DNA of 64,000 nucleotides from a virus. The DNA lies in IMG/VR virus record IMGVR_UViG_3300032046_005540, positions 104,268-168,267 of that record. The stretch is one strand, 5' to 3'. Position numbers and translations under genes: made by a program. Shown one piece after another: positions 10,349 through 30,488 of the stretch (positions are counted from its first letter, which is position 1; each line of letters starts with the position of its first letter). Under the pieces are notes generated by a model. It made no database searches. It was not told the DNA's origin and saw only the letters and a program-made list of their open reading frames with translations.

Positions 10349-11119
10349 TCACTTTATTTCTTTAAGATGATTAAACATAGATTGAGGAATCGATAAGTAA
10401 ACACCATCTACAATATTTTTAACAACATCAATAACCTTATTTGCTTGCAGTAAAGTATAAGTTGTAAAATCTTTATCCGAAATCTCTTTAAATGTATTTA
10501 AATAATCTTCAGGAATAACAACACCAGGAATTTTTGATAAATTATCTAAATGATTTTTAGATTTTGGAATCATTATACCTAATAACACAGGTAAATTATA
10601 TGGTTCTATTTCTTTTAAAAATTTTAATGCTTGACTTATAGTAAATACAGGTTGCGTTTGAAGGTAATCAGCACCAGCATCTATTTTACTTTGTAAATAT
10701 TTGTGATCTATATTATTCGGATCTACGGCAACACCAACCAAAATATTATAAGACTTTACTAACTTAATTACATCAACTATACACGCCCCACTCCAAAATC
10801 CTTTACTATGAGGATCCCCAGATAAAACAAGTATTATATTTACACCAATTGATGCTGCCTGAAGCATATCAGATCTTATTATAACTTCAGATCTCCCAGA
10901 AAGAGGATAATGAACAATTACTTTAAAGCCTTCGGATATCAAATATTGTGCAGTATAAAGAGCTGGTAATTTAGGTTTTCCCATTGGATTAGAAACAACA
11001 CTAATAGTATCAATACCTACTTCTTTAAGTATTTTAATATGTTGAGATAGTTCTTTTAAATTTCCACTACCCGGAGGAATAATTTCAACAACTTTTGTAA
11101 AATTTGAAAACAATTTCAT
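10349..11119 (-). CDS. metF: Methylenetetrahydrofolate reductase-like flavoprotein
   Basis: VEIIPP; LVLSGDP; KIDAGADYLQTQPVF; PVLLGIM; IPGVVIPE. Confidence 0.85.
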   Translation of the reverse strand: MKLFSNFTKVVEIIPPGSGNLKELSQHIKILKEVGIDTISVVSNPMGKPKLPALYTAQYLISEGFKVIVHYPLSGRSEVIIRSDMLQAASIGVNIILVLSGDPHSKGFWSGACIVDVIKLVKSYNILVGVAVDPNNIDHKYLQSKIDAGADYLQTQPVFTISQALKFLKEIEPYNLPVLLGIMIPKSKNHLDNLSKIPGVVIPEDYLNTFKEISDKDFTTYTLLQANKVIDVVKNIVDGVYLSIPQSMFNHLKEIK

Positions 11120-12105
11120 ATTTGCCTCATTACTTCTAAATATTGGTTAACTCTAGTGGTAATTGTATGATTTTTCATTACTTCTTCCTGACCACATTTT
11201 GCTATTTGTTCTCTTTCATCGTCATGTTCTAAATAATATATAACTTTAAATTTTAAATCTTCAATTGTTCCATCATAAGTTACTAAATGTTTCCCAGGAA
11301 TAAAAAACTTTTCAAGATTATCCATAGGAGGACAAATGAAAAAACATCCACAACCCATTGCTTTAAAAATTCTATCCGAAATTTTCCAACCCATATTATC
11401 TTTTATTACATGAAGAGTATCAAATGTTATTTTAGATTGCCTATAAACATTAGTCATTTCAGAACCATAAAGACATTGGTCGGAAGAATTTTCAGATATA
11501 TTTCCAATAACCTTAACTTTACAAAAATCTTTTAAAGTATTAATACATTCCTCTCTCCTAAAAATGTTACGGCCTCTTTGCGAATTGCCTATAAAACAAA
11601 TGTCATAAATTTCATAATTAGTATCTAACCTTTCAATTAAAGGTTTATAATATGTTTGATCATAATATTGGGGCAAAAACACTGCATTTTTTGCATAATC
11701 TTTTAATATTTCTGCCATTCCTTCAACTGATGTTATAATTAAATCAAATACTCCTTTATATCTACCCCAATATCCTAAATCATTTTTTGGTTTATAAGCA
11801 TCAGCATTCCATAAAACTAACTTAAATCCCAATTGTGATATTTTTTCAAAAAACTCTCTTGGTTCAACTCCTGCTCCAGTTACAAATACATAATCTGGAT
11901 TAAATAATTTTACTGATTCAACCATATGAGTTTCATAGTTATATTTGGCAGTACCAGGAGGCAAAGGATGTTCATAGGGTAAACATCTTTCTGGCTCAAT
12001 TAAACATTTAACTAAAACTTCATAGCCCAAATCTTTCATTTCCCGAGCAATCAAAAGACCATTTTGATAAGGCAAATTACAATAAACAAATGTTACTATT
12101 TTCAA
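11116..12105 (-). CDS. CgeB-like glycosyltransferase (GT-B)
   Basis: ICFIGN; SDRIFKAMGCG; YYLEHDDEREQIA...HT. Confidence 0.85.
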   Translation of the reverse strand: MKIVTFVYCNLPYQNGLLIAREMKDLGYEVLVKCLIEPERCLPYEHPLPPGTAKYNYETHMVESVKLFNPDYVFVTGAGVEPREFFEKISQLGFKLVLWNADAYKPKNDLGYWGRYKGVFDLIITSVEGMAEILKDYAKNAVFLPQYYDQTYYKPLIERLDTNYEIYDICFIGNSQRGRNIFRREECINTLKDFCKVKVIGNISENSSDQCLYGSEMTNVYRQSKITFDTLHVIKDNMGWKISDRIFKAMGCGCFFICPPMDNLEKFFIPGKHLVTYDGTIEDLKFKVIYYLEHDDEREQIAKCGQEEVMKNHTITTRVNQYLEVMRQI

Positions 12106-13127
12106 AAATCACCCCCATCAATCACTTTTTGAAAAACATCTAAATACTGGGATTTTAAAACATTCCAAGAAAATTTATTCTCAATAATTTCTCTATTCCT
12201 TTTAGATACTTCTTTTAAATCAATGTTCATTACAAAATTTATCTTAAAAACGAAATCATCTAAATCTGGTTCATAAACAACCTTTTCTTCACCAAAATGT
12301 GAATTATTTTTAACTTTTATAAGAAATTTTTTATCTTCAACAACTTCATTCATTGGAGGAGCATCAGTTGTTATAACAGGAAAACCACAAGCCATTGCTT
12401 CATATATAGGAAGGCCATTTCCTTCAAAATGTGATGGTGCTAAATAAATATCTCCTTCTTTATAAAGATCCATTATTTCAGGTTTTTCACCTACTCTTAA
12501 ATCAACACCCTCAAGGCAGCCATATTTTTCAAGAGGAACTTGAGAATTTATAATTAACTTCACCTTCTCTTTATCTAACTTTTGAAAAGCTCTTAAAACT
12601 AAATCAGTACCTTTTCTTTTAAAATCTACATAACCAGCATTATGTAATAATACTTTGTTTTCCCCTCTTTGAATAAATTTAAAATAATCTGTATCAATAG
12701 GATAAGGTAAATAATAACATTTCCATCCTTTAGATTTTATTATATTATAACTCCACTTATTAACACAAAGCCACAAATCTACAAAATCTTTATACTTTTC
12801 AAGAATAGGTGTTCTTACACTATCTAACATAGGAATATAAACAATTTTAATTCCTTTTTCTTTTAAAATTTTTAAATAATCCCAACAAAAAGGATATTCT
12901 ATTATCAAAACAACATCTAAACCAAAATTTATAAATTTTTCTAAAGCTTCTTTACTCAGATTTTCTTTTGAAGTTATTACAAAACTACATCTTAAATCAT
13001 TTAAATTAGTGCCTTTTGCTTCCCATCTTATAACAAGTTGACTATTAATTTCAAGATGTTTCCTAAAAAATTTTAACATTACTCCTAAACCAGAGTTATT
13101 AGCATATCCTATTGTGCCTATTCTCAT
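12102..13127 (-). CDS. GT4-like glycosyltransferase
   Basis: RKG; PSHFEGNGLPIYEAMACGFPVITTD (Ex7E motif). Confidence 0.9.
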   Translation of the reverse strand: MRIGTIGYANNSGLGVMLKFFRKHLEINSQLVIRWEAKGTNLNDLRCSFVITSKENLSKEALEKFINFGLDVVLIIEYPFCWDYLKILKEKGIKIVYIPMLDSVRTPILEKYKDFVDLWLCVNKWSYNIIKSKGWKCYYLPYPIDTDYFKFIQRGENKVLLHNAGYVDFKRKGTDLVLRAFQKLDKEKVKLIINSQVPLEKYGCLEGVDLRVGEKPEIMDLYKEGDIYLAPSHFEGNGLPIYEAMACGFPVITTDAPPMNEVVEDKKFLIKVKNNSHFGEEKVVYEPDLDDFVFKINFVMNIDLKEVSKRNREIIENKFSWNVLKSQYLDVFQKVIDGGDF

Positions 13128-14080
13128 AATTTTAGTTTTTTCTTAATAATTGAAAGGTATCTACCAACACTTTTATCAATAGTATATTTATCAAAAATTT
13201 CTTTTTGCCCTTTTAATGCTATCTTTTCTCTCGCATCTTCGTGTTTTAAATAATAATCAATTTTCTCTAACATTTCTTCTTTAGTATGAAAAACATCAAG
13301 ATGTTTTTTAAGAATAAAAAGCTCTTCAATTCCTGGAATATATTCAGTTAAAAGAAAACATCCACATCCCATAACCTGATACATTCTAACAGAAAATTGT
13401 AGGTTGTAATTTAATTCTCCTCCAGAAATCATATTCAAACCTATTTTAGATTTCTTATAACAATCTGCTATAAATTTTCCATCATAATTAATAACACTTC
13501 CTAAAGAACTAAATCCCCATCCAACAATTATTGTTCTATATCCCTTTTTAACTATTTCTTTAAGGTATTCTTCTCTTTGTAGAGAACAAGGCGTTTTATT
13601 ACCTACAAAAATAACATCATCTGCTTTTGCTAAAATATTATCTGATTTATAATAAGTATGATCAAAAAAATGAGGACTCCAAACAACTTTATCTGTATAA
13701 GGTTTTGCAATCTCAATATGCCCTTTCATTGTAGTTATAAATAAATCAATAATATCAAACGCTTCTAAAAATAAATGTTTTGAATTTTTTTGATTAAGCC
13801 AATAAGCATCTGGATGCCATATTACAATTTTTGCTCCCAAACTTTTTAAACATTTAATAATATCAAAGCCTCGATTTATTCCTCCAGTCTGAAATACAAA
13901 ATCAGGTTTAAATTCTAAATAAAGAATTCTAATTTGTTCTGCTGATTGATCAAAAAATCCAATAACAATTTCATGCCCTTGTCTTTTTAACTCTTCTACA
14001 ATTCTAATACCATCCTGATATTCATTCAAACCATTGCAAGTTTTAAAAGGAAACCTTTTTACAATCACTAATATCTTCAT
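13124..14080 (-). CDS. CgeB-like glycosyltransferase
   Basis: VIFVGN; SKIGLN; RMYQVMGCGCFLLTE; YYLKHEDAREKIA. Confidence 0.85.
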   Translation of the reverse strand: MKILVIVKRFPFKTCNGLNEYQDGIRIVEELKRQGHEIVIGFFDQSAEQIRILYLEFKPDFVFQTGGINRGFDIIKCLKSLGAKIVIWHPDAYWLNQKNSKHLFLEAFDIIDLFITTMKGHIEIAKPYTDKVVWSPHFFDHTYYKSDNILAKADDVIFVGNKTPCSLQREEYLKEIVKKGYRTIIVGWGFSSLGSVINYDGKFIADCYKKSKIGLNMISGGELNYNLQFSVRMYQVMGCGCFLLTEYIPGIEELFILKKHLDVFHTKEEMLEKIDYYLKHEDAREKIALKGQKEIFDKYTIDKSVGRYLSIIKKKLKL

Positions 14081-15018
14081 AAATATACTCTCTTTTTAAT
14101 TACATCTAAATATTGATTTACACGGGCATCAATGTCATGTTTTTCCATTACCTCTTGATATCCTTGTATAGCTATTTTTTCTCTAATCTTTGGATGTTCC
14201 AAATAATAATCAATTTTTTCTATCATTTCTTCTTTAGTATGGAAAACATCGAGGTGAACTCCAGGAATAAACATTGTTTCAATATTAGGAATGTATTCAG
14301 TTAAAAGGAAACATCCACTTCCCATAACTTGATACACTCTAACTGAAAATTGTAAATCACAATTAAATATACCTCCAGAAACTATATTTAATCCTATTTT
14401 AGAACTTTTATATGCTTTCGCAATATGCTCTCCATTCCAATCTGCTTTAGTTTCTTCATCATTAATAGTAAAACCATGCCCGACAACTTTTAACTTATAC
14501 TTTTTCTCAAGCTCTTTTAAATATTCTTCTCTTTGAGGAGATGCTTCAGTTTTTCCTCCAATAAAACAAATGCCATTTTCTTGCTTAATATTCTTATTTG
14601 TTTTAAAAAAAGTTGAATCAAAATAGTGAGGAGCCCAAACTACCTTATCAGTATAAGATTTTGAAACTTCAACATGACCTCTCATTGTAACTAAAAACAA
14701 ATCAAACACGTTAAAAGCATCTAAAAAATAAGATCTGGAAGGTTCTCTAAATAACCAATAAGCATCAGGATACCACATTACTAATTTTGCACCTAAATCT
14801 TTTAAACTATTTTGAACTCCAAGGTTACCTTTTGAATGTCCCATTCCTGTTTGAAATACAAAATCAGGCTGAAATTTTCTATATCTTGATATATAATCTT
14901 CTATTGATTTTCCAAAAGAAGCAGTATGAGTTTCATGACCCAATCGAGATAACGACTCTTGTATTCGTATTCCATCAGAAAAAGAATTTTTAGTTTCTAT
15001 GATTAACATTATTTTCAT
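14077..15018 (-). CDS. CgeB-like glycosyltransferase, tandem paralogue of 13124..14080
   Basis: Likely start MKIMLII; shares FVFQTG, WxPDAYWL, QFSVRxYQVMG. Confidence 0.85.
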   Translation of the reverse strand: MKIMLIIETKNSFSDGIRIQESLSRLGHETHTASFGKSIEDYISRYRKFQPDFVFQTGMGHSKGNLGVQNSLKDLGAKLVMWYPDAYWLFREPSRSYFLDAFNVFDLFLVTMRGHVEVSKSYTDKVVWAPHYFDSTFFKTNKNIKQENGICFIGGKTEASPQREEYLKELEKKYKLKVVGHGFTINDEETKADWNGEHIAKAYKSSKIGLNIVSGGIFNCDLQFSVRVYQVMGSGCFLLTEYIPNIETMFIPGVHLDVFHTKEEMIEKIDYYLEHPKIREKIAIQGYQEVMEKHDIDARVNQYLDVIKKRVYL

Positions 15019-15020
15019 AT

Positions 15021-15767
15021 TTACATACCTTCTACAAAAGGATCTACATCTCTCCATAAGAGTAAAATACATGGCCAATCTTTAGTTTTATTCATTAATT
15101 GTTTACTAGATCTTAAATCAATTATACCATCCTTACATATTCTACCATATGAAAAACCTAATTTTTCAACTAAATTAAAAAATTGTAATTCAGTAAAACC
15201 AGCTAATTCGTAATGACGATTACTGAGTTCACACACCATTACTAATTTAGAACTGCGATTAATAAGATTTTGAAGTCCTTCAATTACCCCAACCTCAGCA
15301 CCATCTACAACAATTTTAATAAAATCTGCTTTCTCAACATTTTGTAAAATATCATCTCCAACAGCTACTTCTAAATCTAATTCTTTTTTATTTTTATAAT
15401 AAGAAACTCCAGTCTTATTATGTAATCCAAAATTAAAAGGTTTAATATTTTTATATAATTCTGAATTCTTTACAAGAACCTCATAAGTACCGAAAAATGG
15501 TTCAAAAGCATAAATAATTCCTGTTTCTCCTATTTTTTGAGAAGCCATTACAGAATATATTCCTACATTTGCACCAACATCAATACAAGTCATTCCTGGT
15601 TTTAAATATTTACCTACAACATCAAGTTTTTCATTTTCATAAGTACCTAACTTAATACATTTGCTAACAAAATAATCACTACCCACTCTAACTTTTTCAT
15701 CTTTTTTGGCTTCATCATCTTTATCAAGAAGCCACATTTTTCCTACAAAAGTATCAACTAATTCCAT
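15021..15767 (-). CDS. FkbM-family methyltransferase
   Basis: IDVGANVGIYS; YAFEP; FIKIVVDGAE (variant of KIDVEGAE); likely start MELVDTF. Confidence 0.85.
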   Translation of the reverse strand: MELVDTFVGKMWLLDKDDEAKKDEKVRVGSDYFVSKCIKLGTYENEKLDVVGKYLKPGMTCIDVGANVGIYSVMASQKIGETGIIYAFEPFFGTYEVLVKNSELYKNIKPFNFGLHNKTGVSYYKNKKELDLEVAVGDDILQNVEKADFIKIVVDGAEVGVIEGLQNLINRSSKLVMVCELSNRHYELAGFTELQFFNLVEKLGFSYGRICKDGIIDLRSSKQLMNKTKDWPCILLLWRDVDPFVEGM

Positions 15768-15778
15768 TATTATTCTCC

Positions 15779-16519
15779 TTACGGTTTTTGTAAAACTACT
15801 CCTACAGGCATGCATCTCGACACATACATTGGATATGTTTTACAAAATTTTGAAAAAAGAGTATCAAAATTATCAAAATTATCTTTATCATTTAATAATT
15901 TTAAACCAGTATCTTCAATTAATTCTTTAATTTTGTCTGGAGTATAACATGTAATAATTGGATCCGCAGGACTTCCATACCATGTCTTAAACTCTTTGTA
16001 AGCTTCTAAAGTAAAAACAATTCTACCCCCAGGTTTTAAAATTCTATCTAATTCTTTAAATATAATTTTTGCATCTTCTATTGGATTATGCTCTAAAGAA
16101 CTACAAGAAACAATATGATCAAAAAAATTACTTTCAAAATTTGTACATTTTAAATTTTGACAAGAAAATCTCAGGTCTACATCAAATTGTTTTTCTTTTT
16201 CTTTTGACCACTCTTCAATATGACTACCTCTTCTATCTACAGTATATAATTCATAACGTTTTGCTAAAAAAATTTGAAAAACTCCTCTACCACATCCAGC
16301 ATCCAAAATTTTATCTTTTGGAAGAAATGCAGCCTCTGGTATTGCTTTTACTGGAAGATGCCAGTATATCCAAGGATAGTCTAACATATATTGGCTTATA
16401 GCAAGGCTTTCTTCAGCTTCTTTAATGCTATGGCTTGTTCTACATATTTCAATCAATTCCTCATTTACTCTTTGATATTCAAATGTATTTTTCAAATCAA
16501 TATCTAATAATTCTATCAT
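15779..16519 (-). CDS. Class I SAM methyltransferase
   Basis: ILDAGCGRG; FDHIVSCSSLEH; RILKPGG. Confidence 0.9.
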   Translation of the reverse strand: MIELLDIDLKNTFEYQRVNEELIEICRTSHSIKEAEESLAISQYMLDYPWIYWHLPVKAIPEAAFLPKDKILDAGCGRGVFQIFLAKRYELYTVDRRGSHIEEWSKEKEKQFDVDLRFSCQNLKCTNFESNFFDHIVSCSSLEHNPIEDAKIIFKELDRILKPGGRIVFTLEAYKEFKTWYGSPADPIITCYTPDKIKELIEDTGLKLLNDKDNFDNFDTLFSKFCKTYPMYVSRCMPVGVVLQKP

Positions 16520-16536: not shown

Positions 16537-17259
16537 TTATTTTGTTTTTGAAAAAATTACTCCTAAAGGAATAAATTCCCTACTTTTACATACCGAATAT
16601 TCATTAAATATATCTACAATAATTTCTTCAATTTGATTAAAATTATTACCAGAATTAAACAAATATAAATTTGTATTTTCAATTAATTCTTTTATTTCTT
16701 TTTCAGTATAACAAGTTATAATAGGATCTCTAACAGATGGATAAATAACTTTAAATTTTTTCCAAGCAACCAAAGTAAAAATAATTAATCCCCCAGGCTT
16801 CAAAATTCTATCCATTTCTTTAAATATTAATTTAACATCCTCAAAAGAATTATGTTCTAATGAACTACATGAAACTATATAATCAAAAAAATTATCTTCA
16901 TAATTAGTATTTTTTAAATTTTCTTCTTTAAAATTAATTTTTATATTAAATTGTTTTTCTCTTTTTACTATCCAAGAATTATAGATTTCTTTTCTCTTAT
17001 CACAATTATAAACTTCTGCTCCTTCCAAAGCTAAATATAATTGAAGCGTTCCTATTCCTCCTCCAGCATCCAAAATTCTCTTTCCTGAAATTTCTGGTAA
17101 ATGAATTATAATCCAAGGATAATCAAGCATATATGATGATATTGCTAATCCTTTTTTACCTTGCAATTTAGTTACTTGTGTATAAATATTAAGTAATTTT
17201 TTACTTATTTCTTGATATTCTTTTCTATTTTTAATGTTAGAGTTTAATAACTCAATCAT
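16537..17259 (-). CDS. Class I SAM methyltransferase, tandem paralogue of 15779..16519
   Basis: ILDAGGGIG; shares YMLDYPWI, SCSSLEHN, DPIITCYT. Confidence 0.9.
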   Translation of the reverse strand: MIELLNSNIKNRKEYQEISKKLLNIYTQVTKLQGKKGLAISSYMLDYPWIIIHLPEISGKRILDAGGGIGTLQLYLALEGAEVYNCDKRKEIYNSWIVKREKQFNIKINFKEENLKNTNYEDNFFDYIVSCSSLEHNSFEDVKLIFKEMDRILKPGGLIIFTLVAWKKFKVIYPSVRDPIITCYTEKEIKELIENTNLYLFNSGNNFNQIEEIIVDIFNEYSVCKSREFIPLGVIFSKTK

Positions 17260-18503
17260 TATTCTCCTCCATATACTTTATTTACAATTTCAATCAAATT
17301 TTCCGAAACATAATCAATTTCAGACATTGTTATTTCTGTTGCAGTAGGGATATAAAATCCTGTTTCCATATATTCTTCAGCTTTTGGATATCTTTGTCCT
17401 TTAAATTTTTCATAATAAACTGGCTGAAGATGCATTGGAACAAAAAAAGGTCTTGTTTGAATTCCTTTATCCGCTAACATCTTTCTTACTAAATTTTTCT
17501 TTCTACCATCTCTAGGAGATAAAATCACCTCAAACATCCAACAAACTGGACATACATCTGACTCTGGAGGATAGTTTGGTATTACTATGTGCTTTTCTCC
17601 TTGAAAATTTCTAATATATGAATTCCTTGTTATCTTCCTTCTCTCTATTATTTCATCTAATCTTACTAATTGAGCCCTTCCCAAAGCTGCCTGAAGAGCA
17701 GTTAATCTATAATTAAATCCAACAAGTCTATGATAATAATGTCTTTCAGAACCAAAAGCATGATTTATTAAAGTTCTAACACGATTAGCAACATCAGCAT
17801 CATTTGTTGTAATCATTCCTCCTTCCCCGCATGAGACTAATTTCGATGCGTGTAAAGAATATGCAGCAATATCTCCTATTCCTCCAACTATCTTACCTTT
17901 ATAAGATGCGCAATGACCTTCAGCAGCATCTTCAACTACAAGGAGATTATAGTTATTTGCAATTTCTAAGATTTTTTCCATCTTACAAGGATACCCAGAA
18001 ATATGAACTGGAATAATTGCTTTTGTTTTTTTAGTAACTTTATTTTCAATTTTATTCACATCAATATTTAAATGTTCATCAGCATCTACTAAAACTGGAG
18101 TAGCTCCACAATAAATTACTGTTGCAATAGTAGCTATAAAAGTATAAGCTGGAATAATAACTTCATCTCCAAGTCCTATACCAAAAGTTGTTAATGCTAA
18201 ATGTAAAGCGCTAGTTCCATTAGAACAAGCTACTGCATAATTAACGTCCATCTTATCAGCAAATTCTTTTTCAAACTTTTTCACTTCTGGCCCTATGGAA
18301 GAAATCCATCCAGACTCTACTACATCATAAATGTATTTCTTTTCCAAACTACCAATAAAAGGTTCACAAACATAAATTTTAGCTTTCCCCATTGGTCTTT
18401 TATCTTTCAAAATTTCTTTAACTTCAGGTTCAATATCTGGAAAAACTAATCCAAGTTCTTTTTCAAATTCCATAGAAGCTTTTTCAGGCAATTTTAAAAG
18501 CAT
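17259..18503 (-). CDS. DegT/DnrJ/EryC1/StrS nucleotide-sugar aminotransferase (perosamine synthase-like)
   Basis: SNGTSALHLAL; EDAAE; SKLVSCGEGGM (PLP lysine); GFNYRL. Confidence 0.92.
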   Translation of the reverse strand: MLLKLPEKASMEFEKELGLVFPDIEPEVKEILKDKRPMGKAKIYVCEPFIGSLEKKYIYDVVESGWISSIGPEVKKFEKEFADKMDVNYAVACSNGTSALHLALTTFGIGLGDEVIIPAYTFIATIATVIYCGATPVLVDADEHLNIDVNKIENKVTKKTKAIIPVHISGYPCKMEKILEIANNYNLLVVEDAAEGHCASYKGKIVGGIGDIAAYSLHASKLVSCGEGGMITTNDADVANRVRTLINHAFGSERHYYHRLVGFNYRLTALQAALGRAQLVRLDEIIERRKITRNSYIRNFQGEKHIVIPNYPPESDVCPVCWMFEVILSPRDGRKKNLVRKMLADKGIQTRPFFVPMHLQPVYYEKFKGQRYPKAEEYMETGFYIPTATEITMSEIDYVSENLIEIVNKVYGGE

Positions 18504-18516
18504 TTTTTCTTTCCTT

Positions 18517-21648: not shown

Positions 21649-22577
21649 TTCACCAATTCCTCTAAAATACCTTTAGCTATATTAAAATTTATTTTTAATA
21701 CTTTTTGAGAAACATTATAACTTGCCTCACAAAGATCAGTATAAAGATCTGGAGAACTCAAAATTAAATCTATTCTCTTTTTTATTTCAACAGAATTATT
21801 TGGATTTTTAACTTTACATATTTCACTTAACATATACTCATAAGAATACCAATATACAGAAGGACTAACAATTACTGGTATTTTAAGTAACCCCAATTCT
21901 AATACAAAATAGCAAAAGCTTTCTGATAAAGATACTTGAAGACCTAATTTCATTCCTCGAAGTATATTATAATATTTTTCATTAGATACCCAATCAGACC
22001 AAATCCAATCTTGTTTAAAAAGAGATTTACTTAATTCAAACAATTCTGGTTTAGAACCAAAAGTATATAACCCTTCATCTTTATATTTTGAAGTTGCTAC
22101 CGCTAAAGCCTGATTATAAAAATTTTTGTTTCCTCTATTTATTCCTCCACAGCATATTCCTCTTCTACTTTCAAATTGAGGTTCAGGTAATTTTTTATTA
22201 AACAATGGGGGAAGCCATTTAATTTTATCTCCCCAAATAGAACTTAAAGCATCTGCATCTGGTTTATGAAGTAAAAACAAATAATCTAAAATACCTTTGT
22301 TTACTTCTTGGATTTTTCCATTCAACAAATTCAATTCATTTGAAAATTCACACTGAAGAATTGGCGAGCAAAAAAGGAAACTTGTTTTATAATTAAAATC
22401 TTCTTTTCTTAAAGGGCTATAACCGAAACCGATAACTAATTTTGTATCAGGAGTTGGATTAAAGGTTTCAAATGTTTGAAGTTCAACTTCTGGAATTAAA
22501 CTCAACCCCTCAAAACACGAAAAAGCTCCCCCAAAACCAAGACATTGTTTTGGTATAACTGCAATAATTTTAGGCAT
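21645..22577 (-). CDS. Divergent GT-B glycosyltransferase
   Basis: NKN; LQVSLSESFCYFVLE...IPVIVSP (Ex7E motif). Confidence 0.75.
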   Translation of the reverse strand: MPKIIAVIPKQCLGFGGAFSCFEGLSLIPEVELQTFETFNPTPDTKLVIGFGYSPLRKEDFNYKTSFLFCSPILQCEFSNELNLLNGKIQEVNKGILDYLFLLHKPDADALSSIWGDKIKWLPPLFNKKLPEPQFESRRGICCGGINRGNKNFYNQALAVATSKYKDEGLYTFGSKPELFELSKSLFKQDWIWSDWVSNEKYYNILRGMKLGLQVSLSESFCYFVLELGLLKIPVIVSPSVYWYSYEYMLSEICKVKNPNNSVEIKKRIDLILSSPDLYTDLCEASYNVSQKVLKINFNIAKGILEELVK

Positions 22578-23351
22578 CTATTTTCCTATATAAGGTTTTA
22601 AATATTGAACAATTCTTTCTGTATTATTTAAAATATCGTTTTCCCAAAATCTTAATAAAATAAAATTACTTTCTTTTGCTATTTGCTTATGTTTCTCTTC
22701 TCTTTGTTTATTTTTTATTTGAACAAAATTTAATTTTTCAAATTTTTTAGGATTCCCATGCCAATAGTCTCCATCAACTTCAATGAGAATGTTAGTATTT
22801 GAAAGATGAAAGTCAAAAAGATGATTTCCTAATCGAAATTGATGTTCAAAAGGAATACCTAAAGAATTTAATATTTCTTTCATTTTTAATTCAGGTTTAG
22901 TATCTTTATAAGGGCCTTTATAATTTTTCATTTTAAATAAAACTGATTCTCGCATTTTTTGTTTTGCCTCTTCAGAATTAATAAAACCCAAAGTTTCTTT
23001 TCTTTTTAAACGAGCTTTACTTAACTTTTGTTTTGTTTCATCAGAACGAAGTTTACTATATTTAGCTACTCTTTCATCTGTTTCTTTTGTTAGATCTTTA
23101 TTCCAAGCCTGCTTACCATACATAGGATTATTTTTACCAGATTGATTTCTTCCATACATAGGATTCTTATCACCTTTATTAGCACAACTATAACATCTAA
23201 TAGATTTTCTATCAATTTCTTTCCCGCAATCAATACAATATAAAGGATATTTTCCAGACCAAAGAGGATTTAATTCTCCTTTTTTTGCACAAGAAGAACA
23301 ACGTTTTCCAAATCCTTTAATTTCTTTTTCACAATCTATACACTTATTCAT
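22578..23351 (-). mobile_element. Free-standing homing-endonuclease-like gene (Zn ribbons, NUMOD3-like repeats, DUF559/Vsr-like domain)
   Basis: CIDC twice; NPMYG repeats; TKPELKM...FDF...IEVDGDYWH...LRFWE. Confidence 0.8.
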
Positions 23352-24280
23352 TATAATACCTTCTCAATTTCCTTTAAATATTCCCGAACTCTAATATTAA
23401 TTGTATGGTCTTCTAAAACTCTCTGTTGACCACTTCTTGCTATTTGTTCTCTTTCATCTTCATGCTCCAAGTAGTAATCAATCTTATCATATAAATCTTT
23501 TTCACCATCAAATACTACTAAATGTTTTCCATTATCAAATAATTGATTTAAATCTATAATATTTTGAGTTAAACAAAACGATCCACAGCCTAAAATCTTA
23601 TATATACGATCAGACATTTGAAGAGAACAAGGATTTAGCACTGTAATAAAATTCAAAGCAATTTTTGAATTCCTATATATATTTGCAATTTCTTTAGTTT
23701 CCACAGCAATACTTGGAACATTAAATCCTCTTCCAACAACTTTTATTTTATATTTTTCATACAACTTAGGAATACACTCATTCCGATCTGGAGAAATACC
23801 CCCGTTATTATTTCCGATAAAACATATATTATATATTTCACATTTTGGATCCAATCTTTCAATATTTGGTTTATAATAAGTTTGATCATAATATTGAGGT
23901 CCCCAAACAACTTTTTTAGCAAAACCTTCAAGTTGAGGAACAATTCCTTTTACTGCAACTAAAATTAAATCAAACTTTCCTTTTACCTGTTTAAAAAACT
24001 CAGTATCTGGAGAAAAGGTAGGCCCATACGCATCTGGATACCATAAAACTAATTTATGTCCTAATTGTTTTAAAGGCAATAAATGTTGAGGAGAAGCAGT
24101 TCGTCCACCACATTGTAAAACGAAATTAGGTTTATATTGTTCTACACTTTTAACAATTTCAGAAGAAGGAGCACCGACTGGGAAAGTAAAAACTTCATGT
24201 CCTTCTTCTCTAAAAACTCTCGCCATAAGCAAACCATTCTGATTTGTCGAGTGTAAAGGAGCTAAAATAAATATTTTCAT
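23351..24280 (-). CDS. CgeB-like glycosyltransferase, paralogue of 11116..12105
   Basis: Shares QYYDQTYYKPxIERLD, ICFIGN, SDRI, YYLEH. Confidence 0.85.
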   Translation of the reverse strand: MKIFILAPLHSTNQNGLLMARVFREEGHEVFTFPVGAPSSEIVKSVEQYKPNFVLQCGGRTASPQHLLPLKQLGHKLVLWYPDAYGPTFSPDTEFFKQVKGKFDLILVAVKGIVPQLEGFAKKVVWGPQYYDQTYYKPNIERLDPKCEIYNICFIGNNNGGISPDRNECIPKLYEKYKIKVVGRGFNVPSIAVETKEIANIYRNSKIALNFITVLNPCSLQMSDRIYKILGCGSFCLTQNIIDLNQLFDNGKHLVVFDGEKDLYDKIDYYLEHEDEREQIARSGQQRVLEDHTINIRVREYLKEIEKVL

Positions 24281-24288
24281 TTTAATCC

Positions 24289-24807
24289 TCAATAAGGATA
24301 AATTTTCGAAATCTTTTTTGCTTGAACACCTAAATCATAAAAATATGCATTAGATCTTGGATCTCTTCCACCAATTTCAAAACCAGCACTTTCAACCAGG
24401 TCATCTAATCTTTTTCTGTCAAATGTTAATCGATGAACATTCTCTCCATACTCTTGATTTCCAAATAGTAATCTACTAAATTCTGCACAAGGTATTTTAC
24501 CTTCTATATAATCTTTAGCAATTTTTTCAGCATCAGGACAATAAATTCTCAATACCCCTTCTGATTTCAAAATTCTATACCACTCTGCTAATGTTTTTAT
24601 TATTTTATTTGGATGAATATGCTCTATTGTATGAGATATTCTAATTTCATCTACTGAGTCATCTTTAAACATTGGTAAGTCTGTAATATCATGTATAATA
24701 TCAACTCCCGGAAGATTCCTTATATCAATATTAGTAAAACCTATTAATATAGGAGATCCAGGACCTCCTTCATACTTTTCTGCTCCTCCTAAATTTAATT
24801 TCAACAT
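24289..24807 (-). CDS. Short SAM methyltransferase, related to 18517..19020
   Basis: KLNLGG; VDEIRISHTIEH; EWYRILK; CPD. Confidence 0.85.
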   Translation of the reverse strand: MLKLNLGGAEKYEGGPGSPILIGFTNIDIRNLPGVDIIHDITDLPMFKDDSVDEIRISHTIEHIHPNKIIKTLAEWYRILKSEGVLRIYCPDAEKIAKDYIEGKIPCAEFSRLLFGNQEYGENVHRLTFDRKRLDDLVESAGFEIGGRDPRSNAYFYDLGVQAKKISKIYPY

Positions 24808-25505
24808 ATTTTTCCCAAAACTTCAATTTCTTTTAAATCTTTTATAACAATCAATTTTAAATCTTTATATCCATATTCATTTAACAATTTTCTTCTTTTT
24901 GTATAATACTGTTTATCAGTTAATTTAAAATCAAATGAATGAAATTCAACTACAATTTTATCATTTATTAAAAAATCAAACCTATTTAAAAAATTATGTT
25001 TAACTTTAAAACCTAATTCTTTTAGTTTTATATAACAATCTTTTTCTGATAAAGAAGGGAAAAATTCATTGTCATAATAACATTTCTTACCATGACTATT
25101 TCTTAATGAGCGTTGGATAGCTTCTGGAGTACTATATATAAAATTTTCTCTTTTTTTCAATGTATCACTAATTTTCTTTTTTGTTTTTTCAGAATGGGGA
25201 ATATCTTTATTCCAAGAAGATATGCCTATATGAGATTTGCTCATATTTCTTTTCCATTCTTTAGAAAAAGGAGGACGTTTTTTACCTTTTCTTGACTTAC
25301 TTATTTTTTCTCTAACTTCTGGTCTTTTTGCCGGATTATTTTCACCAACAAGTTTTCCTTTATTCTTTTTACTTATTTTCATTTTTGTTTTATTAGAATG
25401 ATGTTCCCCATAAAAAGGATTTCTTACACCTTTGTGAGAACAAACAGCACATCTCTTAGCTAATCTACTAATTTCTTTTTCACAATCAATACAATAATTT
25501 TTCAT
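24801..25505 (-). mobile_element. Free-standing NUMOD3-containing putative endonuclease, second class
   Basis: CIDC...CAVC; NPFYGEHHSNKTKMKIS; C-terminal FPSLSE...RFDFL...VVEFH shared with 55644..56204. Confidence 0.7.
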
Positions 25506-25506
25506 A

Positions 25507-26448
25507 TTATATTTTTTCTAAAAGCTTTACAACTTTATTATTATTATTTTCCATCACTGAAACTGCTATATTCTTTGATAAGATACACAAATCTTTATAC
25601 AAAATAGAATCAAAATAAATTTTTTTGATCTTCTCTCCTATTAAAATAGGGTTATCAAGATTTTCAATAAAACAAAACTTTTTTAAAGTAGAATCTTCAA
25701 CATACCAAGATATACTAGGACTAACAACTGAAGGAATACTCAACATTGCAAGTTCCCAAGTCGAATAATTAAAACTTTCGCTAAACGAAATCTGTATTCC
25801 CAATCTTACAGTATTCATTAAATCTAAAAGTTGTTGCCTTTGTAATCTTGGGTATAACGTAATATTCTTCATATCAAATAAATTTGCAAAAAATTGGCAC
25901 ATTTGAACTTTTTCTTGTCCTGTTATAACAAAAGGATCTTCAACGCTTGAATATTTTATTGCTCCAAACATTGTTGCTAAATTTTTATGTTTATCTGAAG
26001 TCCCAAAAAAACAAATACTTTTCCTATCTTCTACATTAAAACTATTTTTTGGTTGCAAATCCCATTGTAAAGCAGGAGGTAAATAAATAATTTTTTCATT
26101 TTTAAAAAGATAAGTTAGCCTTTCTGAAAGTAAAAATATATAATCAATATCTCCACTTTTTAACATATTCTTATATCTTAACAAAGCATCCAAATCCCCA
26201 TTCAAACTTGAAGGAACCACATGAGCCTGAGCTAAAGGAGAACAAAAAAGAACTCCTATTTTCCTTCCTTTCTTCCTTAATCTCAATAAATCAATTTCTC
26301 CAATACCACAAGAAATAATCAAATCTCCATCTTGATCTTGGAGTTGTTCCCAAGGAATATGTTTAGTTTTCCCAGTAACTTCTAAATGTTTTAAGGCCCA
26401 ATAAGCACCAGTATCTTGCCATGCTTGAGGGCAGGTTGTAATTATCAT
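25507..26448 (-). CDS. Divergent GT-B glycosyltransferase, paralogue of 21645..22577
   Basis: LFCSP; LPP; HKN; QISFSESFNYSTWEL; IPSVVSPSISWY. Confidence 0.75.
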   Translation of the reverse strand: MIITTCPQAWQDTGAYWALKHLEVTGKTKHIPWEQLQDQDGDLIISCGIGEIDLLRLRKKGRKIGVLFCSPLAQAHVVPSSLNGDLDALLRYKNMLKSGDIDYIFLLSERLTYLFKNEKIIYLPPALQWDLQPKNSFNVEDRKSICFFGTSDKHKNLATMFGAIKYSSVEDPFVITGQEKVQMCQFFANLFDMKNITLYPRLQRQQLLDLMNTVRLGIQISFSESFNYSTWELAMLSIPSVVSPSISWYVEDSTLKKFCFIENLDNPILIGEKIKKIYFDSILYKDLCILSKNIAVSVMENNNNKVVKLLEKI

Positions 26449-26462: not shown

Positions 26463-26642
26463 TTAACTGCTCAAAGCAATTAGTTCACAAAGTTCGTCTA
26501 TGTTTTCTCTTATTTTTCTAATTTCTTCTTTAATCAATCCCCTTATATCTGGTTCTTTATAGGGTAATCCTTCTGTATACAACTCAATTTCTTGAATATT
26601 AAGTTGCAATTTTGTTATTAACATCCCAAATTTAGATATCAT
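26463..26642 (-). CDS. Small hypothetical protein (59 aa)
   Basis: Manual ORF MISKFGMLITKLQLNIQEIELY... after AAGGAG. Confidence 0.5.
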   Translation of the reverse strand: MISKFGMLITKLQLNIQEIELYTEGLPYKEPDIRGLIKEEIRKIRENIDELCELIALSS

Positions 26643-26979
26643 TATTATCTCCTTTTGGTCCTTTATAATATGTCCCTATCTTTTTTCTATATGCTTTTAC
26701 TCTCCTATATAAAACTTTTGAAAGTTCTTCTGCCTGTTCAGCATTTAACAAAATTTCATCGAAACTAAGTTCAGGTGTTTTCCATCCTTTAATATATTGC
26801 CAACATCTTTTTACCCTTTGCCACAAATTAGCAGGATCACTATATTGAATTTCAAAATAAAATACATCATCATTTTCATAAAATTTTTTATCTACACGAA
26901 CAACCATTTTATCTTCACATCCGGCACACGAACAGTATAATTCAAGTAGATCATCATAATAAGGTTTTATGGTTTTCAT
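26632..26979 (-). CDS. Hypothetical protein
   Basis: ORF track; GGAG RBS. Confidence 0.65.
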   Translation of the reverse strand: MKTIKPYYDDLLELYCSCAGCEDKMVVRVDKKFYENDDVFYFEIQYSDPANLWQRVKRCWQYIKGWKTPELSFDEILLNAEQAEELSKVLYRRVKAYRKKIGTYYKGPKGDNNDI

Positions 26980-26992
26980 AAAGTCTCCTAAT

Positions 26993-27937
26993 TCAATTTA
27001 TAACTTTTTCAAAAATTTGTTTCCATTTATAAATAAATCGTTCAGGGGGAAATACTTCTTTAACAAGTTGTTTTCCTCTTTGCCCAATTTTTTTTGCTCT
27101 CTCTGGATTTTCTAGTAACTCAATTATCTTTTTTCTTAAATCAGTAGCATTATTTGAAGTTAAAGCATTTATTCCATCTTTTAACAACAAATGCATTTCG
27201 CAACAATCTGTTGAAACTACGGGTGCACCAACTGCCATTGCCTCTAGCAAACTCATAGGAATGGGGGAGGCTGTGGCGGAATTAAAGTAAGCCCCAGCTT
27301 TTACTAATAGCTTTTTTATTTCATCATTGGGCATTAATCCTTTACAAGCCTCCCCTATATTTTCATTACTATAACCATAAACTCTAACATCTTTTAATCC
27401 CCAAGTTGAATTAACCCAAAGTAAATAACCACAACACCAATCTCTGTTTGGAAATTCGTTGCAAACAGTTATTATTGACTTTTCTCCTCCTTCATAATTT
27501 GGAAATTCATTTACATCTATTGCATGATAAATTACAGAATTTTTATCATCCTCTTTCATTCCCCAAGCTTGCATACTTGATTTTGTTATAAAAATAGTAT
27601 GATCAATAAATTTCTCTCTGTTTTCTTTCCAAGTATTCACATTCCAATCGTTATATGGCCAAGTATGCTCTGTAAAAACTCTTGGAATTAATTGAAAACC
27701 TTCCTCATAAGAAGAAATAATAGTTGGATGACGATGAATAAGCATTAAATCAAAATCTTTTTGTTTATCTAAAGCTTCTTCTTTAGAAATCTCAAAAACA
27801 TTATTGGGTTTTGATACTTGTTCATCCCAACAAACTTTATTATTCTCATCTATAATATGATAAAATTCAACTTCTAGAATAGAAGCTAAATTCTTCTGAT
27901 ATGTAGAATGGGCGAAATGGGATAAAATTTTTAACAT
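26993..27937 (-). CDS. GT4-like glycosyltransferase
   Basis: IYHAID; SPIPMSLLEAMAVGAPVVST; KKIGQRG. Confidence 0.85.
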   Translation of the reverse strand: MLKILSHFAHSTYQKNLASILEVEFYHIIDENNKVCWDEQVSKPNNVFEISKEEALDKQKDFDLMLIHRHPTIISSYEEGFQLIPRVFTEHTWPYNDWNVNTWKENREKFIDHTIFITKSSMQAWGMKEDDKNSVIYHAIDVNEFPNYEGGEKSIITVCNEFPNRDWCCGYLLWVNSTWGLKDVRVYGYSNENIGEACKGLMPNDEIKKLLVKAGAYFNSATASPIPMSLLEAMAVGAPVVSTDCCEMHLLLKDGINALTSNNATDLRKKIIELLENPERAKKIGQRGKQLVKEVFPPERFIYKWKQIFEKVIN

Positions 27938-27940
27938 TAT

Positions 27941-29095
27941 TTATATATTCTCCAAAAACAAATTTAATCTCTCAGCACTTTCTGTCCAAGTCAATTTTCT
28001 ATCTATAAGTTCTTGTCTTTGCTCCAATGCTTTTTCTTTAGCCATTTCATTCTTTTCAAATGAACGAACCATTACTCTCTCAAACTCTTGCCAGTCAGGA
28101 ATTGTAATTTGTTGTGGCGGCTCGTAGACGTGTTGCCAGAAAAGTTCTCTACGTAATTGTTCCCATTTATAGTTTAAAATAACAGTTTTCTCTGGATTTA
28201 AATATGTATCAGGAGCAGTTCCTCCAGTTGTAATTATAGGTAACCCACTTGCTATTGCTTCTATAATAGGCATTCCAAAAGCTTCTCCTGAACTTGGCAA
28301 AATAAACACATCAGCATTATGATACAATTTACTCATATCTTCTGGTGTTAATGCCCCATGAACTAAATAAACTTTAGGCCCCTCCCCCAAACCTAATCCA
28401 GCGTGATTTCTTACAGCATTTATTTTTTCAATACATTGAATTTTATCAATAGTCCCAGCACCTTTTCCATATACTTTTAAAATTAAACCAACATCTTTAT
28501 TAGTTCTAAATGTTTTAAGAAAAGATAAAATCATTTGAGATATATTTTTACGATCTCCAGGAGTCCATTGACCAATACTTAAAAAATTAAATTTTGTAGA
28601 AATTTCTTCTTTTGGAAGTAAAGGTTGTTTATCTAAAGTATACATATCAAAATCAACTCCAAATGGAATTGTAGTAATAGGAACCTTAACACCACTTTCC
28701 ATAAATGTCTTTACATTAAAAGGTGTAGGAACTATACATCCATCTAAACGATTTAAAATATAAGCCCAAGTTGGAGTAATTTTATCAGTTTCCAGCATAG
28801 TAAATCCAAAATATTTTTTATAATTATGAGGCCATTGAAATTCAATAGGAATAGACATATGAATAAGAATACTTTCTTCAGGAGGGTATTCTTTTCTTCG
28901 TAGGAGATCAAGAATTTCACGATCTTCAGGAGATAATTCAATATCTCCAGCAGTTAACCATTGAAGATTTTGTAAAGCAATATCGTAGGAATCTTTGTAT
29001 TTTTTATAAAAAGCTAAAATCAAACTTCTACTTACTGAACCATACCCTGAAAAATTATCTACAGTGGCTCTAAACACTACTTTCTTTTTATTCAT
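27941..29095 (-). CDS. GT4-like glycosyltransferase
   Basis: SGYG; ETDK; RKN; PSSGEAFGMPIIEAIASGLPII. Confidence 0.9.
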   Translation of the reverse strand: MNKKKVVFRATVDNFSGYGSVSRSLILAFYKKYKDSYDIALQNLQWLTAGDIELSPEDREILDLLRRKEYPPEESILIHMSIPIEFQWPHNYKKYFGFTMLETDKITPTWAYILNRLDGCIVPTPFNVKTFMESGVKVPITTIPFGVDFDMYTLDKQPLLPKEEISTKFNFLSIGQWTPGDRKNISQMILSFLKTFRTNKDVGLILKVYGKGAGTIDKIQCIEKINAVRNHAGLGLGEGPKVYLVHGALTPEDMSKLYHNADVFILPSSGEAFGMPIIEAIASGLPIITTGGTAPDTYLNPEKTVILNYKWEQLRRELFWQHVYEPPQQITIPDWQEFERVMVRSFEKNEMAKEKALEQRQELIDRKLTWTESAERLNLFLENI

Positions 29096-29270
29096 CTATA
29101 CTCTCCTTCTTCTATTTCTTTTCTAAAGACAATGAACATATCTAACTACAATTTTCTTTGGGCTAATTTTTATTAGTCCCTTTTTGTTTAATATTAATGT
29201 ATTTCTAATTTCTATTCTACCCAAATCACGGTCAATTATTATATTAGATCTCATTTTAATTCCTTTCTTT

Positions 29271-30488
29271 TTATTTTGTTTCTGGAATTGTGGTAATTGT
29301 GTATTGAGGATATTTTTTCCAACTTACTACAGTTTCTTTCAAAACATTTTCAATATTTTCAACCATCTTCTCTGAAGAATAATTATCAACAATATGTTGT
29401 CTACATTTAGATGCCTTATCTTTTAACAATTCCTTATTAGAATAAGCTTCCTCTAAAGCTTCTAATACATCTTCATCCGATACAAATCTTTGATCAATAT
29501 AAGGAACTTGTTGACTACCAAATTGACTAATAACTTTAGGTTTAACTAACCAACCATTTTCTTCTGTAATTATTCCACCAGATCCAGCGGTCTCTGCGGC
29601 TATACATGGCGTTCCACAAGCCATAGATTCAGCTAAAGGTAATCCAAAACCTTCTGCATATGCAATGTTTATACTTATATCAAACATATTATATAAATGA
29701 GTTAAAAAAGTATCATCCTGACCTCTTGGTTCACTCACCGCAACTGGAAGATCTGGATATAATGTATTTCGAAGATATAACAAATTAGTTCCTTCAGGAT
29801 CAAAAGGACTTGAATGCAAAAACAATAAAACATCTTTTTTATCTTTTGCAAATTTTGAAAATATTCTATAAAGATCTAATATTCTTTTACGTAAAATATT
29901 TCTTCCTACATATCCAACTATAAATTTAAAATCTACAAGTTGAGGTTGATTTTTAAAAATCTCTTTTTTAAAATTAGAAACTGTTTCCTCTGGAAGAATT
30001 TTAAACACTTCAGTATTTACTCCCATAGGAGCATAAAAAATAGGGGTATCTTTATAATTATTGATTAGTAATTCATAAATAAATTTAGATCCGGCGGCAA
30101 TTGCATCTGTAGAACGGTAAAATATAGTATTAAATTTAGGAAAAGGTTGATCATCCCATAAATGATAGAAAACTAAAGGGCAAGCATTACGAATTTCATT
30201 ATCAATTTCAAAAACATGAGTTAAATGTCTTGGATCCGAATTTATAATCATTACATCTGGTTTATGTTCTTTTAAAACAAAACGGATATCATTAATGTTC
30301 GCATAATTATAAACAGAGTAAAGCACCATCCCATTCCAAGGATATGCTTTAAAAGGTCCTGGATTTATAGAACCTGCAAGTATAATAATTTGATGACCTT
30401 TTGCTCTTAAACCTGTTAACAAATCTTTTCCTACTTTACCATAACCAGTTGGAATTGTAGGGGAATCAGAAAGGTATAAAATCTTCAC
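29271..30488 (-). CDS. GT4-like glycosyltransferase (GTG start)
   Basis: SDSPTIPTGYG; VGRNILRK; EGFGLPLAESMACGTP; AGGAGG RBS. Confidence 0.9.
   Translation of the reverse strand: MKILYLSDSPTIPTGYGKVGKDLLTGLRAKGHQIIILAGSINPGPFKAYPWNGMVLYSVYNYANINDIRFVLKEHKPDVMIINSDPRHLTHVFEIDNEIRNACPLVFYHLWDDQPFPKFNTIFYRSTDAIAAGSKFIYELLINNYKDTPIFYAPMGVNTEVFKILPEETVSNFKKEIFKNQPQLVDFKFIVGYVGRNILRKRILDLYRIFSKFAKDKKDVLLFLHSSPFDPEGTNLLYLRNTLYPDLPVAVSEPRGQDDTFLTHLYNMFDISINIAYAEGFGLPLAESMACGTPCIAAETAGSGGIITEENGWLVKPKVISQFGSQQVPYIDQRFVSDEDVLEALEEAYSNKELLKDKASKCRQHIVDNYSSEKMVENIENVLKETVVSWKKYPQYTITTIPETK

Follow-up and report, generated by a model that had tools for sequence, protein, structure and literature searches.

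A block of about 20 kb (positions 10349-30488) in the 64,000-nucleotide window considered here comprises 23 open reading frames (ORFs), all on the minus strand, and constitutes a genuine glycan-assembly operon owned by the phage that carries it. The window, meaning the whole stretch of DNA that was analysed, is the final 64 kb (positions 104,268-168,267) of the 168,267-bp IMG/VR virus record IMGVR_UViG_3300032046_005540, whose completeness is ~90% according to CheckV. The block probably, if not securely, serves the cytoplasmic glycosylation of the phage's own virion proteins, in the tail sheath, the baseplate and the distal tail. A broader proposal is advanced more tentatively: its first two enzymes, GT-A and GT-B, might be a widespread phage-specific pair for O-glycosylation, acting on [S/T]-G-S motifs of the tail sheath and the fibres. 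Here this pair would have been extended to the most complex virion-glycan pathway known in a tailed phage, with twelve glycosyltransferases (GTs), an amino-sugar step, multiple methylations, its own folate/methionine supply and a turnover resembling that of O-antigen loci. The names GT-A, GT-B and GT-C are used below for the first three enzymes of the block, and protein folds are designated as such.

Gene content and ownership of the block

Ownership by the phage follows from an even base composition, from endonuclease paralogues throughout the genome and from an identical locus in relatives. GC content varies between 27 and 36% without a step at the edges of the block, where it is a uniform 27-31%, and the strand bias (190 of the 195 ORFs of the genome lie on the minus strand) is unchanged across both junctions. 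Of the block proteins, only two free-standing homing endonucleases have paralogues in the rest of the genome; they are members of an expanded NUMOD3 / Vsr-DUF559-type family with more than ten copies over the 168 kb. The order of distal tail ORFs, glycan block and helicase is kept in two independently assembled relatives, G001 and G002. The initial annotation had raised the possibility of a misassembly, in which a host polysaccharide locus would have been mis-joined to a phage contig. The gene content is indeed like that of bacterial polysaccharide loci, but each of the three lines of evidence above contradicts such an artefact, as do the viral character of the core GT and the presence of a 79% identical GT-A homologue on L092, a 43.5-kb contig of a metagenome-assembled genome (MAG). 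Misassembly is rejected as exceedingly improbable. The sheath protein is only ~30% identical to the sheaths of mycobacteriophage cluster C and Myrna, so the phage represents a new lineage.

Twelve GTs of the GT-B fold type are encoded in the block, including GT4-like, four CgeB-like and divergent enzymes, as initially annotated. Nine of them score above the Pfam cut-off, namely four CgeB-like proteins (PF13524, 81-97 bits against a cut-off of 25) and five GT4 proteins (PF00534). The other three (20662-21648, 21645-22577 and 25507-26448) show only sub-threshold GT matches in Pfam; profile searches against the PDB were too weak for these divergent proteins, and fold and atlas evidence was used instead. 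For the family formed by 21645-22577 and 25507-26448, the predicted fold (pLDDT 82.6) has as its top PDB matches WaaG, the mycobacterial methylmannose-polysaccharide mannosyltransferase (ManT) and SenB. The third, GTx1, is placed in the atlas at 0.98, with a TM value of ~0.8 to GT1/GT4 clusters that are 81-95% viral. The CgeB-like GTs of the run 11116-15078 are paralogues with a mutual identity of 30-52%.

The DegT aminotransferase and the methylenetetrahydrofolate reductase (MTHFR) noted in the same annotation are both real, and the co-orientation of the genes holds, with most neighbours overlapping by 1-4 nt. Other items needed amendment. Six methyltransferase ORFs, including the FkbM type, are present as claimed, but one of them is broken by a stop codon. 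The block does begin 88 bp after the upstream distal-tail ORF, but the description of that neighbour as fibre-like is positional only. Two NUMOD3 homing endonucleases and an ORF of 115 amino acids (aa) had been missed. In the following list, given in gene order, SAM stands for S-adenosylmethionine and NDP for nucleoside diphosphate.

29271-30488, minus strand: GT-A, predicted retaining GT4 enzyme, first gene of the block (PF00534/PF13439)
27941-29095, minus strand: GT-B, second predicted retaining GT4 enzyme (PF00534/PF13692)
26993-27937, minus strand: GT-C, GT4 enzyme, third gene (PF00534), kept in this phage family only (G001 70%, G002 42%)
26632-26979, minus strand: 115-aa ORF with a Cys-rich N-terminus, no family assigned (no Pfam match; no BLAST counterpart in G001 or G002)
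25507-26448, minus strand: GTy2, divergent glycosyltransferase of GT-B fold type, paralogue of 21645-22577 (29% identity)
24801-25505, minus strand: free-standing NUMOD3 homing endonuclease, an insertion (PF07460; genome paralogues of 33-78% identity; junction empty in G001)
24289-24807, minus strand: small SAM methyltransferase, 172 aa (PF08241), 33% identical to its paralogue 18517-19020
23351-24292, minus strand: CgeB-like GT, copy 4 (PF13524, 92 bits; G001 orthologue 80% identical)
22578-23351, minus strand: free-standing NUMOD3 + Vsr/DUF559-type homing endonuclease, an insertion (13 tblastn matches elsewhere in the genome, 28-69% identity; not in G001)
21645-22577, minus strand: GTy1, divergent glycosyltransferase of GT-B fold type (predicted fold)
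20662-21648, minus strand: GTx1, divergent GT4-like enzyme of a mostly viral family (PF00534 sub-threshold)
19614-20672, minus strand: GT4b glycosyltransferase (PF00534, 77 bits)
19036-19617, minus strand: SAM methyltransferase pseudogene, a 194-aa frame with an in-frame TGA (ORF called at 19033-19410, 125 aa)
18517-19020, minus strand: small SAM methyltransferase, 167 aa (PF08241)
17259-18536, minus strand: DegT/DnrJ/EryC1 pyridoxal-phosphate aminotransferase, for an NDP-keto-6-deoxyhexose (PF01041, 370 bits)
16537-17259 and 15779-16519, minus strand: pair of class-I SAM methyltransferases, paralogues 49% identical (Pfam)
15021-15815, minus strand: FkbM-family methyltransferase (PF05050, TIGR01444)
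14077-15078, minus strand: CgeB-like GT (PF13524 in Pfam)
13124-14080, minus strand: CgeB-like GT (PF13524 in Pfam)
12102-13127, minus strand: GT4a (PF00534)
11116-12105, minus strand: CgeB-like GT (PF13524 in Pfam)
10349-11119, minus strand: MTHFR, last gene of the block (PF02219, 66 bits; YitJ-type, 123 bits)

Comparison with G001 by tblastn and blastn locates the TGA of the interrupted methyltransferase at 19453-19455, on a glycine of the GxGxG motif I. In this genome TGA is a regular stop that ends 41 of the 195 ORFs, and the codon is thus a nonsense mutation; recoding (code 25, TGA = Gly) is rejected on the same count. Either the gene was inactivated recently or the codon is a sequencing error.

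Solubility is a general property of the block. No protein has a transmembrane-like segment (the maximum KD19 value is 1.84, in the DegT core), and a hydrophobicity scan of all 195 ORFs found at most three hydrophobic segments in any of them, and two or three only in holin-sized ORFs (67-140 aa). Because there is no multi-pass ORF among the 195, a flippase, a polymerase, a priming transferase and Gtr proteins are absent genome-wide. Specifically, the scan found neither the GtrA, GtrB and polytopic Gtr transferase of serotype-converting systems nor, among the 195 ORFs, the priming transferase, flippase/polymerase or transporter of Wzx/Wzy and ABC-transporter polysaccharide loci, for which host components may serve. 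What had been stated of the block, that it lacks transmembrane segments and any flippase, polymerase or GtrAB-like gene, is confirmed by the scan and in the latter respect extends to the whole genome. The accompanying argument that serotype-type loci need membrane components leaves room for the use of host export machinery.

The supply of substrates is shared with the host. No short-chain dehydrogenase/reductase (SDR) of the dehydratase/epimerase type and no nucleotidyltransferase was found in the genome, so that the host must supply both the nucleotide sugars and the keto-sugar used by DegT. This aminotransferase is LegC/PseC-like, scores under both equivalog cut-offs and has GDP-perosamine synthase as its nearest PDB match (292 bits). 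From the Pse/Leg/Bac amino-sugar pathway the aminotransferase alone is present, and the set of 4,6-dehydratase, aminotransferase and N-acetyltransferase is incomplete. MTHFR is rare in phages (4 of 50,697 phage records). It occupies the same block position in G001 and in both phages overlaps the preceding GT by 4 nt; no MetK is encoded in the genome. Together with MetE genes of G001, MTHFR reads as a phage methyl-supply (methyl-cycle) module for the methyltransferases, a role supported by the location of two MetE-core genes within the G001 cluster.

The core pair and its candidate acceptors

Homologues of GT-A were detected by profile search in at least 590 viral contigs. The corresponding search of 185,579 prokaryote species genomes yielded eight loci, every one of them in a MAG and on a contig that is short or of phage size, with no isolate genome among them. 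Adjacency was scored on the best 80 of the at least 590 loci, in stretches of ~21 kb, and in nearly every locus that extends far enough a GT-B homologue directly follows GT-A. GT-A and GT-B are a conserved and phage-specific pair. Loci that carry it mostly have two or three ORFs of the GT-B fold type within ~21 kb, and six or seven only in this phage family. Among 50,697 phage records, tblastn of GT-A gave 14 matches (E <= 1e-5), none of them from a mycobacteriophage. The carriers are phages of unrelated hosts, including Flavobacterium, and belong to marine, freshwater and anaerobic lineages. In the Flavobacterium phage immuto (vB_FspM_immuto, NC_055915), the core pair, at 30% identity, lies within an 11-kb block. 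In Synechococcus phage S-CBS4, the portal and head-protease genes enclose a remote homologue together with another GT and a methyltransferase, a setting that speaks for a virion acceptor.

Both members of the pair are predicted to be active retaining GT4 enzymes. In GT-A, R200-K201 and E279-x7-E287 are invariant in 25 homologues; in GT-B, R182-K183 and E271 are kept in 27 of 27 homologues and E279 in 25 of 27. The AlphaFold2 model of GT-A (pLDDT 94) adopts the GT-B fold, so that fold, R/K residues and E-x7-E are all found in this protein, the motif residues recurring in its partner. Because the R-K dyad and E-x7-E are kept in both, the two are not a catalytic/non-catalytic pair of the GtfA/GtfB type, and the accessory-Sec O-glycosylation pair of that name was rejected as a model. 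The closest PDB entry to GT-A, by sequence profile and by fold, is B736L of chlorovirus NY-2A (3oy2), a 405-aa GDP-mannose-binding viral GT whose acceptor is described as unresolved (PMC9614988); identity is only 17%. A match to PF20706, 'GT4 in conflict systems', leads to a source that predicts generic effector GTs only, with no acceptor (PMC8195603).

Candidate acceptors were found among the tail proteins, through an excess of the tripeptide Ser-Gly-Ser (SGS).

30577-34988, minus strand: four distal-tail ORFs following Baseplate_J, candidate acceptors (19 SGS against ~1.2 expected)
54284-55654, minus strand: tail sheath, candidate acceptor (phrog_2839; 3 SGS against 0.22 expected)

SGS is the top-enriched tripeptide of the tail block (33 observed, 3.8 expected). 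Genome-wide, the ratio of observed to expected is 3.8 in this phage, 4.6 in G001 and 3.8 in G002, and it is raised in unrelated carriers of the pair as well (immuto 2.7, G004 2.2, G005 2.3). Genomes without the pair give 1.2 (T4) and 1.2-1.4 (two siphoviruses with remote GT homologues only). For TGS, a similar surplus is seen in immuto, G004, G005 and G001; scrambled S/G tripeptides, by contrast, have ratios close to 1. Those SGS-rich proteins of unrelated carriers that PHROGs can name are tail sheaths and one tail spike; the sheaths of three unrelated carriers contain four or five SGS each. Nine of the 19 distal-tail sites are conserved in G001, against a background of 26% (p = 0.04). For the SGS-richest tail ORF the atlas provides a lead of 0.76 only (P2 gpI).

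From these elements we infer a sequence of steps. On Ser/Thr residues, probably those of [S/T]-G-S motifs, GT-A and GT-B would place the two initial sugars, with GT-C acting next, and nine further enzymes of the GT-B fold type would extend and branch the chain. Nucleotide sugars would be supplied by the host, and DegT would turn a host NDP-4-keto-6-deoxyhexose into an amino sugar. The five intact SAM methyltransferases would methylate the sugars, and MTHFR would provide 5-methyl-tetrahydrofolate to a methionine synthase and so sustain SAM, this synthase being the host's here and phage-encoded in G001. The initial annotation had proposed much the same, a methylated amino-sugar glycan assembled in the cytoplasm on virion proteins. 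The soluble glycan-assembly block, DegT and the methyltransferases bear out the first part, and the virion as acceptor gains indirect support from the phage-specific pair, the missing link to a DNA route and the [S/T]-G-S excess. The further idea of a shield or host-surface mimic is speculation.

Several observations weigh against the virion as acceptor. GT4 folds do not reveal their acceptor, the distal-tail ORFs belong to no recognised family, and the SGS excess could be a structural motif of tail proteins, its statistics comprising one negative-control myovirus (T4) and three independent positives. The pair is not generally next to tail genes either: in most carriers, which form a large distant lineage, it follows an exonuclease and PhoH, and in immuto it follows a PD-(D/E)XK nuclease, in a neighbourhood of DNA metabolism rather than of the tail. 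Since distant carriers place the pair after nuclease genes, adjacency to the tail is specific to this phage family; the conservation in relatives anticipated for it holds within the family and not beyond. With a genome ~90% complete, genes may be missing from the assembly, and part of the pathway may be decaying here, one methyltransferase being broken and the MetE genes absent. Finally, the candidate acceptors are deduced from the genes of an uncultured phage.

Other acceptors and known systems

An acceptor brought by the phage itself is favoured because the genome lacks membrane machinery and because the GT family is phage-specific across unrelated hosts. Both arguments bear on a remodelling of the host envelope, in which the soluble GTs would build a polymer on a host lipid carrier, to be exported by a host ABC transporter or flippase for superinfection exclusion or grazer evasion. 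ABC-transporter-dependent O-antigen synthesis typically relies on peripheral GT4 enzymes together with a methyltransferase that ends the chain (E. coli O8/O9a WbdA-D), and the GT4 and methyltransferase content of the block fits this type, as the replacement of content between relatives fits O-antigen loci. The large GT sets ('LPS genes', for lipopolysaccharide) of cyanomyoviruses have been interpreted in this way (PMC12801897). Envelope remodelling nevertheless appears unlikely: the genome encodes no priming transferase, transporter, ligase or multi-pass membrane protein, the GT-A family is essentially absent from bacterial genomes, all searched isolates included, and its distribution over phages of unrelated hosts argues for a phage-borne acceptor. 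The phage also looks virulent, which would leave little time for surface remodelling.

Hypermodification of DNA, with a methylated glycan built on a modified base of the phage genome to block restriction, in the manner of T-even phages, is judged quite unlikely. It draws on the fact that phage enzymes of both GT-A and GT-B type can put di- or oligosaccharides on DNA (bioRxiv 10.1101/2023.12.21.572611), on the helicase and replication genes that adjoin the block downstream, on the exonuclease or PD-(D/E)XK nuclease that precedes the core pair in other lineages, and on the DNA-modification genes QueC and radical-SAM/DUF5591 of this phage. The known DNA glycan systems, on 5-hydroxymethylcytosine (5hmC) or 5hmU, however, need a ThyA-family hydroxymethylase, or a C5-methyltransferase with 5mYOX (same preprint). 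Here neither a ThyA-family hydroxymethylase (PF00303) nor a C5-cytosine methyltransferase (PF00145) was found, with working controls, in the ~90% complete genome. PF12851 (Tet_JBP) was uninformative, its control being silent, as was PF01702 (DpdA), with no match even in this genome; QueC was used in place of the latter. Of eight genomes with the pair, two have ThyA and four have QueC. Some complete genomes with the pair lack QueC, and both genes are missing from G005, whose ends carry the terminal repeats of a complete genome. The 40 top fold matches listed for GT-A include no T4-type DNA glucosyltransferase, twelve GTs and five methyltransferases far exceed any pathway in the preprint, and the [S/T]-G-S excess of virion proteins would have no explanation if DNA were the acceptor. 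Compared with the established DNA glycosylation systems (T4 alpha/beta-GT and the 5hmC clusters of Pyle et al.), the block shares soluble phage enzymes of the GT-B fold type, which sometimes act sequentially, but differs in that genes for a hydroxymethyl handle were not found and do not co-occur with the core pair. As a separate observation, a 229-aa ORF has a weak, sub-threshold ThyX-like match (14 bits; G000:C1:78042-78155, L086) and may be a divergent flavin-dependent thymidylate synthase.

Some other cytoplasmic acceptor is rated very unlikely, whether it be a small metabolite, a free polymethylated polysaccharide of the MMP/MGLP kind known from mycobacteria, or host proteins that the phage alters to take over the cell. 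In the methylmannose-polysaccharide pathway a GT4 enzyme and SAM methyltransferases alternate in the cytoplasm, and the fold of GTy1 matches the mannosyltransferase of that pathway; GT4 enzymes such as MshA and BshA also glycosylate metabolites. Such acceptors would give no rationale for a position next to tail genes in this family, nor for the sequon-like excess in virion proteins, and gene turnover at the strain level is typical of exposed antigens.

Glycosylation of virion proteins has counterparts in several systems. In tailed phages it is, to our knowledge, documented only for actinophages, with small gene sets, and Freeman et al. (2023, Cell Host Microbe) reportedly described mycobacteriophage virion glycosylation by phage-encoded glycosyltransferases. 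Mycobacteriophage systems of this kind use few genes. Common to them and to the present block are soluble cytoplasmic GTs of a tailed phage without membrane machinery, which in the mycobacteriophages decorate the phage's own capsid and tail proteins, whereas here 23 ORFs encode, besides 12 GTs, methyltransferases, an aminotransferase and a folate enzyme. Since GT-A has no mycobacteriophage match at E <= 1e-5, the block enzymes are not of the mycobacteriophage GT family. One source reports that phage-encoded GTs glycosylate mycobacteriophage virions, with glycans on the C-terminal ends of the subunits of capsid and tail tube (PMC12619734); the candidate sites here are internal [S/T]-G-S motifs of sheath and distal tail proteins.

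The clusters of giant viruses (Megavirinae fibril glycans) comprise 6-33 genes with clade-specific content (PMC10117803), and chloroviruses glycosylate their capsids, with B736L among their GTs (PMC9614988). The likeness lies in virus-encoded, cytoplasmic, clustered GTs accompanied by amino-sugar and methylation enzymes, virion decoration being deduced from genes in the present case. These eukaryotic viruses differ in usually having their own nucleotide-sugar pathways, none of which is encoded here, though G002 has one. Aquatic myoviruses provide the nearest parallel in size, with 13 GTs in S-SCSM2R and 'LPS genes' in P-SSM2 and S-SCSM1 (PMC12801897), so that gene count alone is not unprecedented. 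These phages, and immuto with its block, resemble the present one as big virulent myoviruses with many GTs, epimerases and aminotransferases of unassigned function; the cyanophage sets differ in being dispersed and in including families of the GT-A fold, whereas here 12 GTs form one array with a methyl-supply enzyme. Glycosylation of the Bacillus spore crust and exosporium involves CgeB, Sps enzymes and the anthrose glycan of BclA. The spore system shares with the block CgeB-like PF13524 GTs, a DegT-type aminotransferase and sugar methylation, all cytoplasmic and directed at a large protein assembly without a flippase, but it belongs to cellular differentiation, and the likeness tested is a match to the PF13524 domain. 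The novelty lies in the arrangement of 23 ORFs as one contiguous array, in a core pair that is phage-specific and comes with a candidate sequon, in a turnover of the O-antigen kind and in genes for folate/methionine methyl supply.

Turnover of the locus, its setting and its meaning

Comparison with the two relatives reveals extensive turnover. In G001, where GT-A is 74% identical, the block from GT-A to MTHFR spans 22.4 kb and contains nearly the same gene families in a reshuffled order, without the endonucleases, with the intact 194-aa methyltransferase and with a second FkbM. Its two paralogous MetE-core genes (PF01717, the catalytic domain of cobalamin-independent methionine synthase; L088:18825-19793 and G001:C1:19790-20758) sit at the junction of GT4b and the broken methyltransferase (~19617-19619 here), where this phage has none. 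In G002, where GT-A is 39% identical, the position of the locus, GT-A, GT-B, GT-C and three other GTs are kept. The rest is replaced by a PseB/CapD-type 4,6-dehydratase, RmlD-like and other SDR enzymes, two GT2s, a GNAT and another DegT (L090/L091, G002 62000-101000). G002 thus encodes its own amino-sugar route, which leads one to expect in its glycan a phage-made sugar of the bacillosamine or pseudaminic type. The core of the locus is constant and its periphery is reshuffled or replaced between relatives, so that it behaves like an O-antigen locus. Each strain would display its own glycan, given that the variable part is exchanged.

The genes on either side of the block are the following.

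54284-55654 to 34998-36410, upstream of the block: myovirus tail genes, from the sheath (54284-55654) through baseplate components to Baseplate_J (34998-36410)
Downstream of the block: helicase, DnaC-like ATPase, DnaB and a radical-SAM/DUF5591 pair

Additional HNH endonucleases occur among the tail genes (41611-42717 and 53355-54260). A YkuD L,D-transpeptidase domain protein and a DUF6884 protein are encoded at 3717-4259 and 7163-7687, among the replication genes downstream.

Generic scans for sigma-70 promoters and terminators performed no better than on shuffled sequences. A genome-wide k-mer search identified a recurrent intergenic extended -10 motif, TGTGTATAAT, which in the form TTTTGTGTATAATA lies ~30 nt before start codons at window positions 51232, 51616, 8116 and 7119 and at about 12 sites upstream of the window. 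No intergenic TGTGTATAAT motif occurs between 50.7 kb and 8.2 kb of the window, and hence the block and the tail genes lie in one stretch free of such promoters, a fact that does not establish its timing. Strong AAGGAGG Shine-Dalgarno sites accompany the motif. This suggests a Gram-positive-like host, or one that otherwise makes strong use of such sites, unlike the Bacteroidota host of the nearest cultured carrier of the pair. The contig L092 (JAGMCF010000218.1, 43.5 kb), whose GT-A relative was mentioned above, has been assigned to a MAG of Candidatus Cloacimonadota, probably through mis-binning of a phage contig, and may hint at habitat or host.

If virion glycosylation is indeed the function of the block, some environmental phages spend more than 10% of their genome on a strain-variable sugar coat, with a bearing on host recognition, on resistance to proteases, grazers and defence lectins, and on phage antigenicity. 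MTHFR, together with MetE in a relative, would then represent in this methyltransferase-rich operon a new type of auxiliary metabolic gene, devoted to methyl supply for virion decoration. The core pair with its candidate sequon makes the idea testable in the cultured Flavobacterium phage immuto. Whatever the acceptor, a phage-specific pair present in hundreds of contigs represents an uncharacterised core function that is worth assigning.

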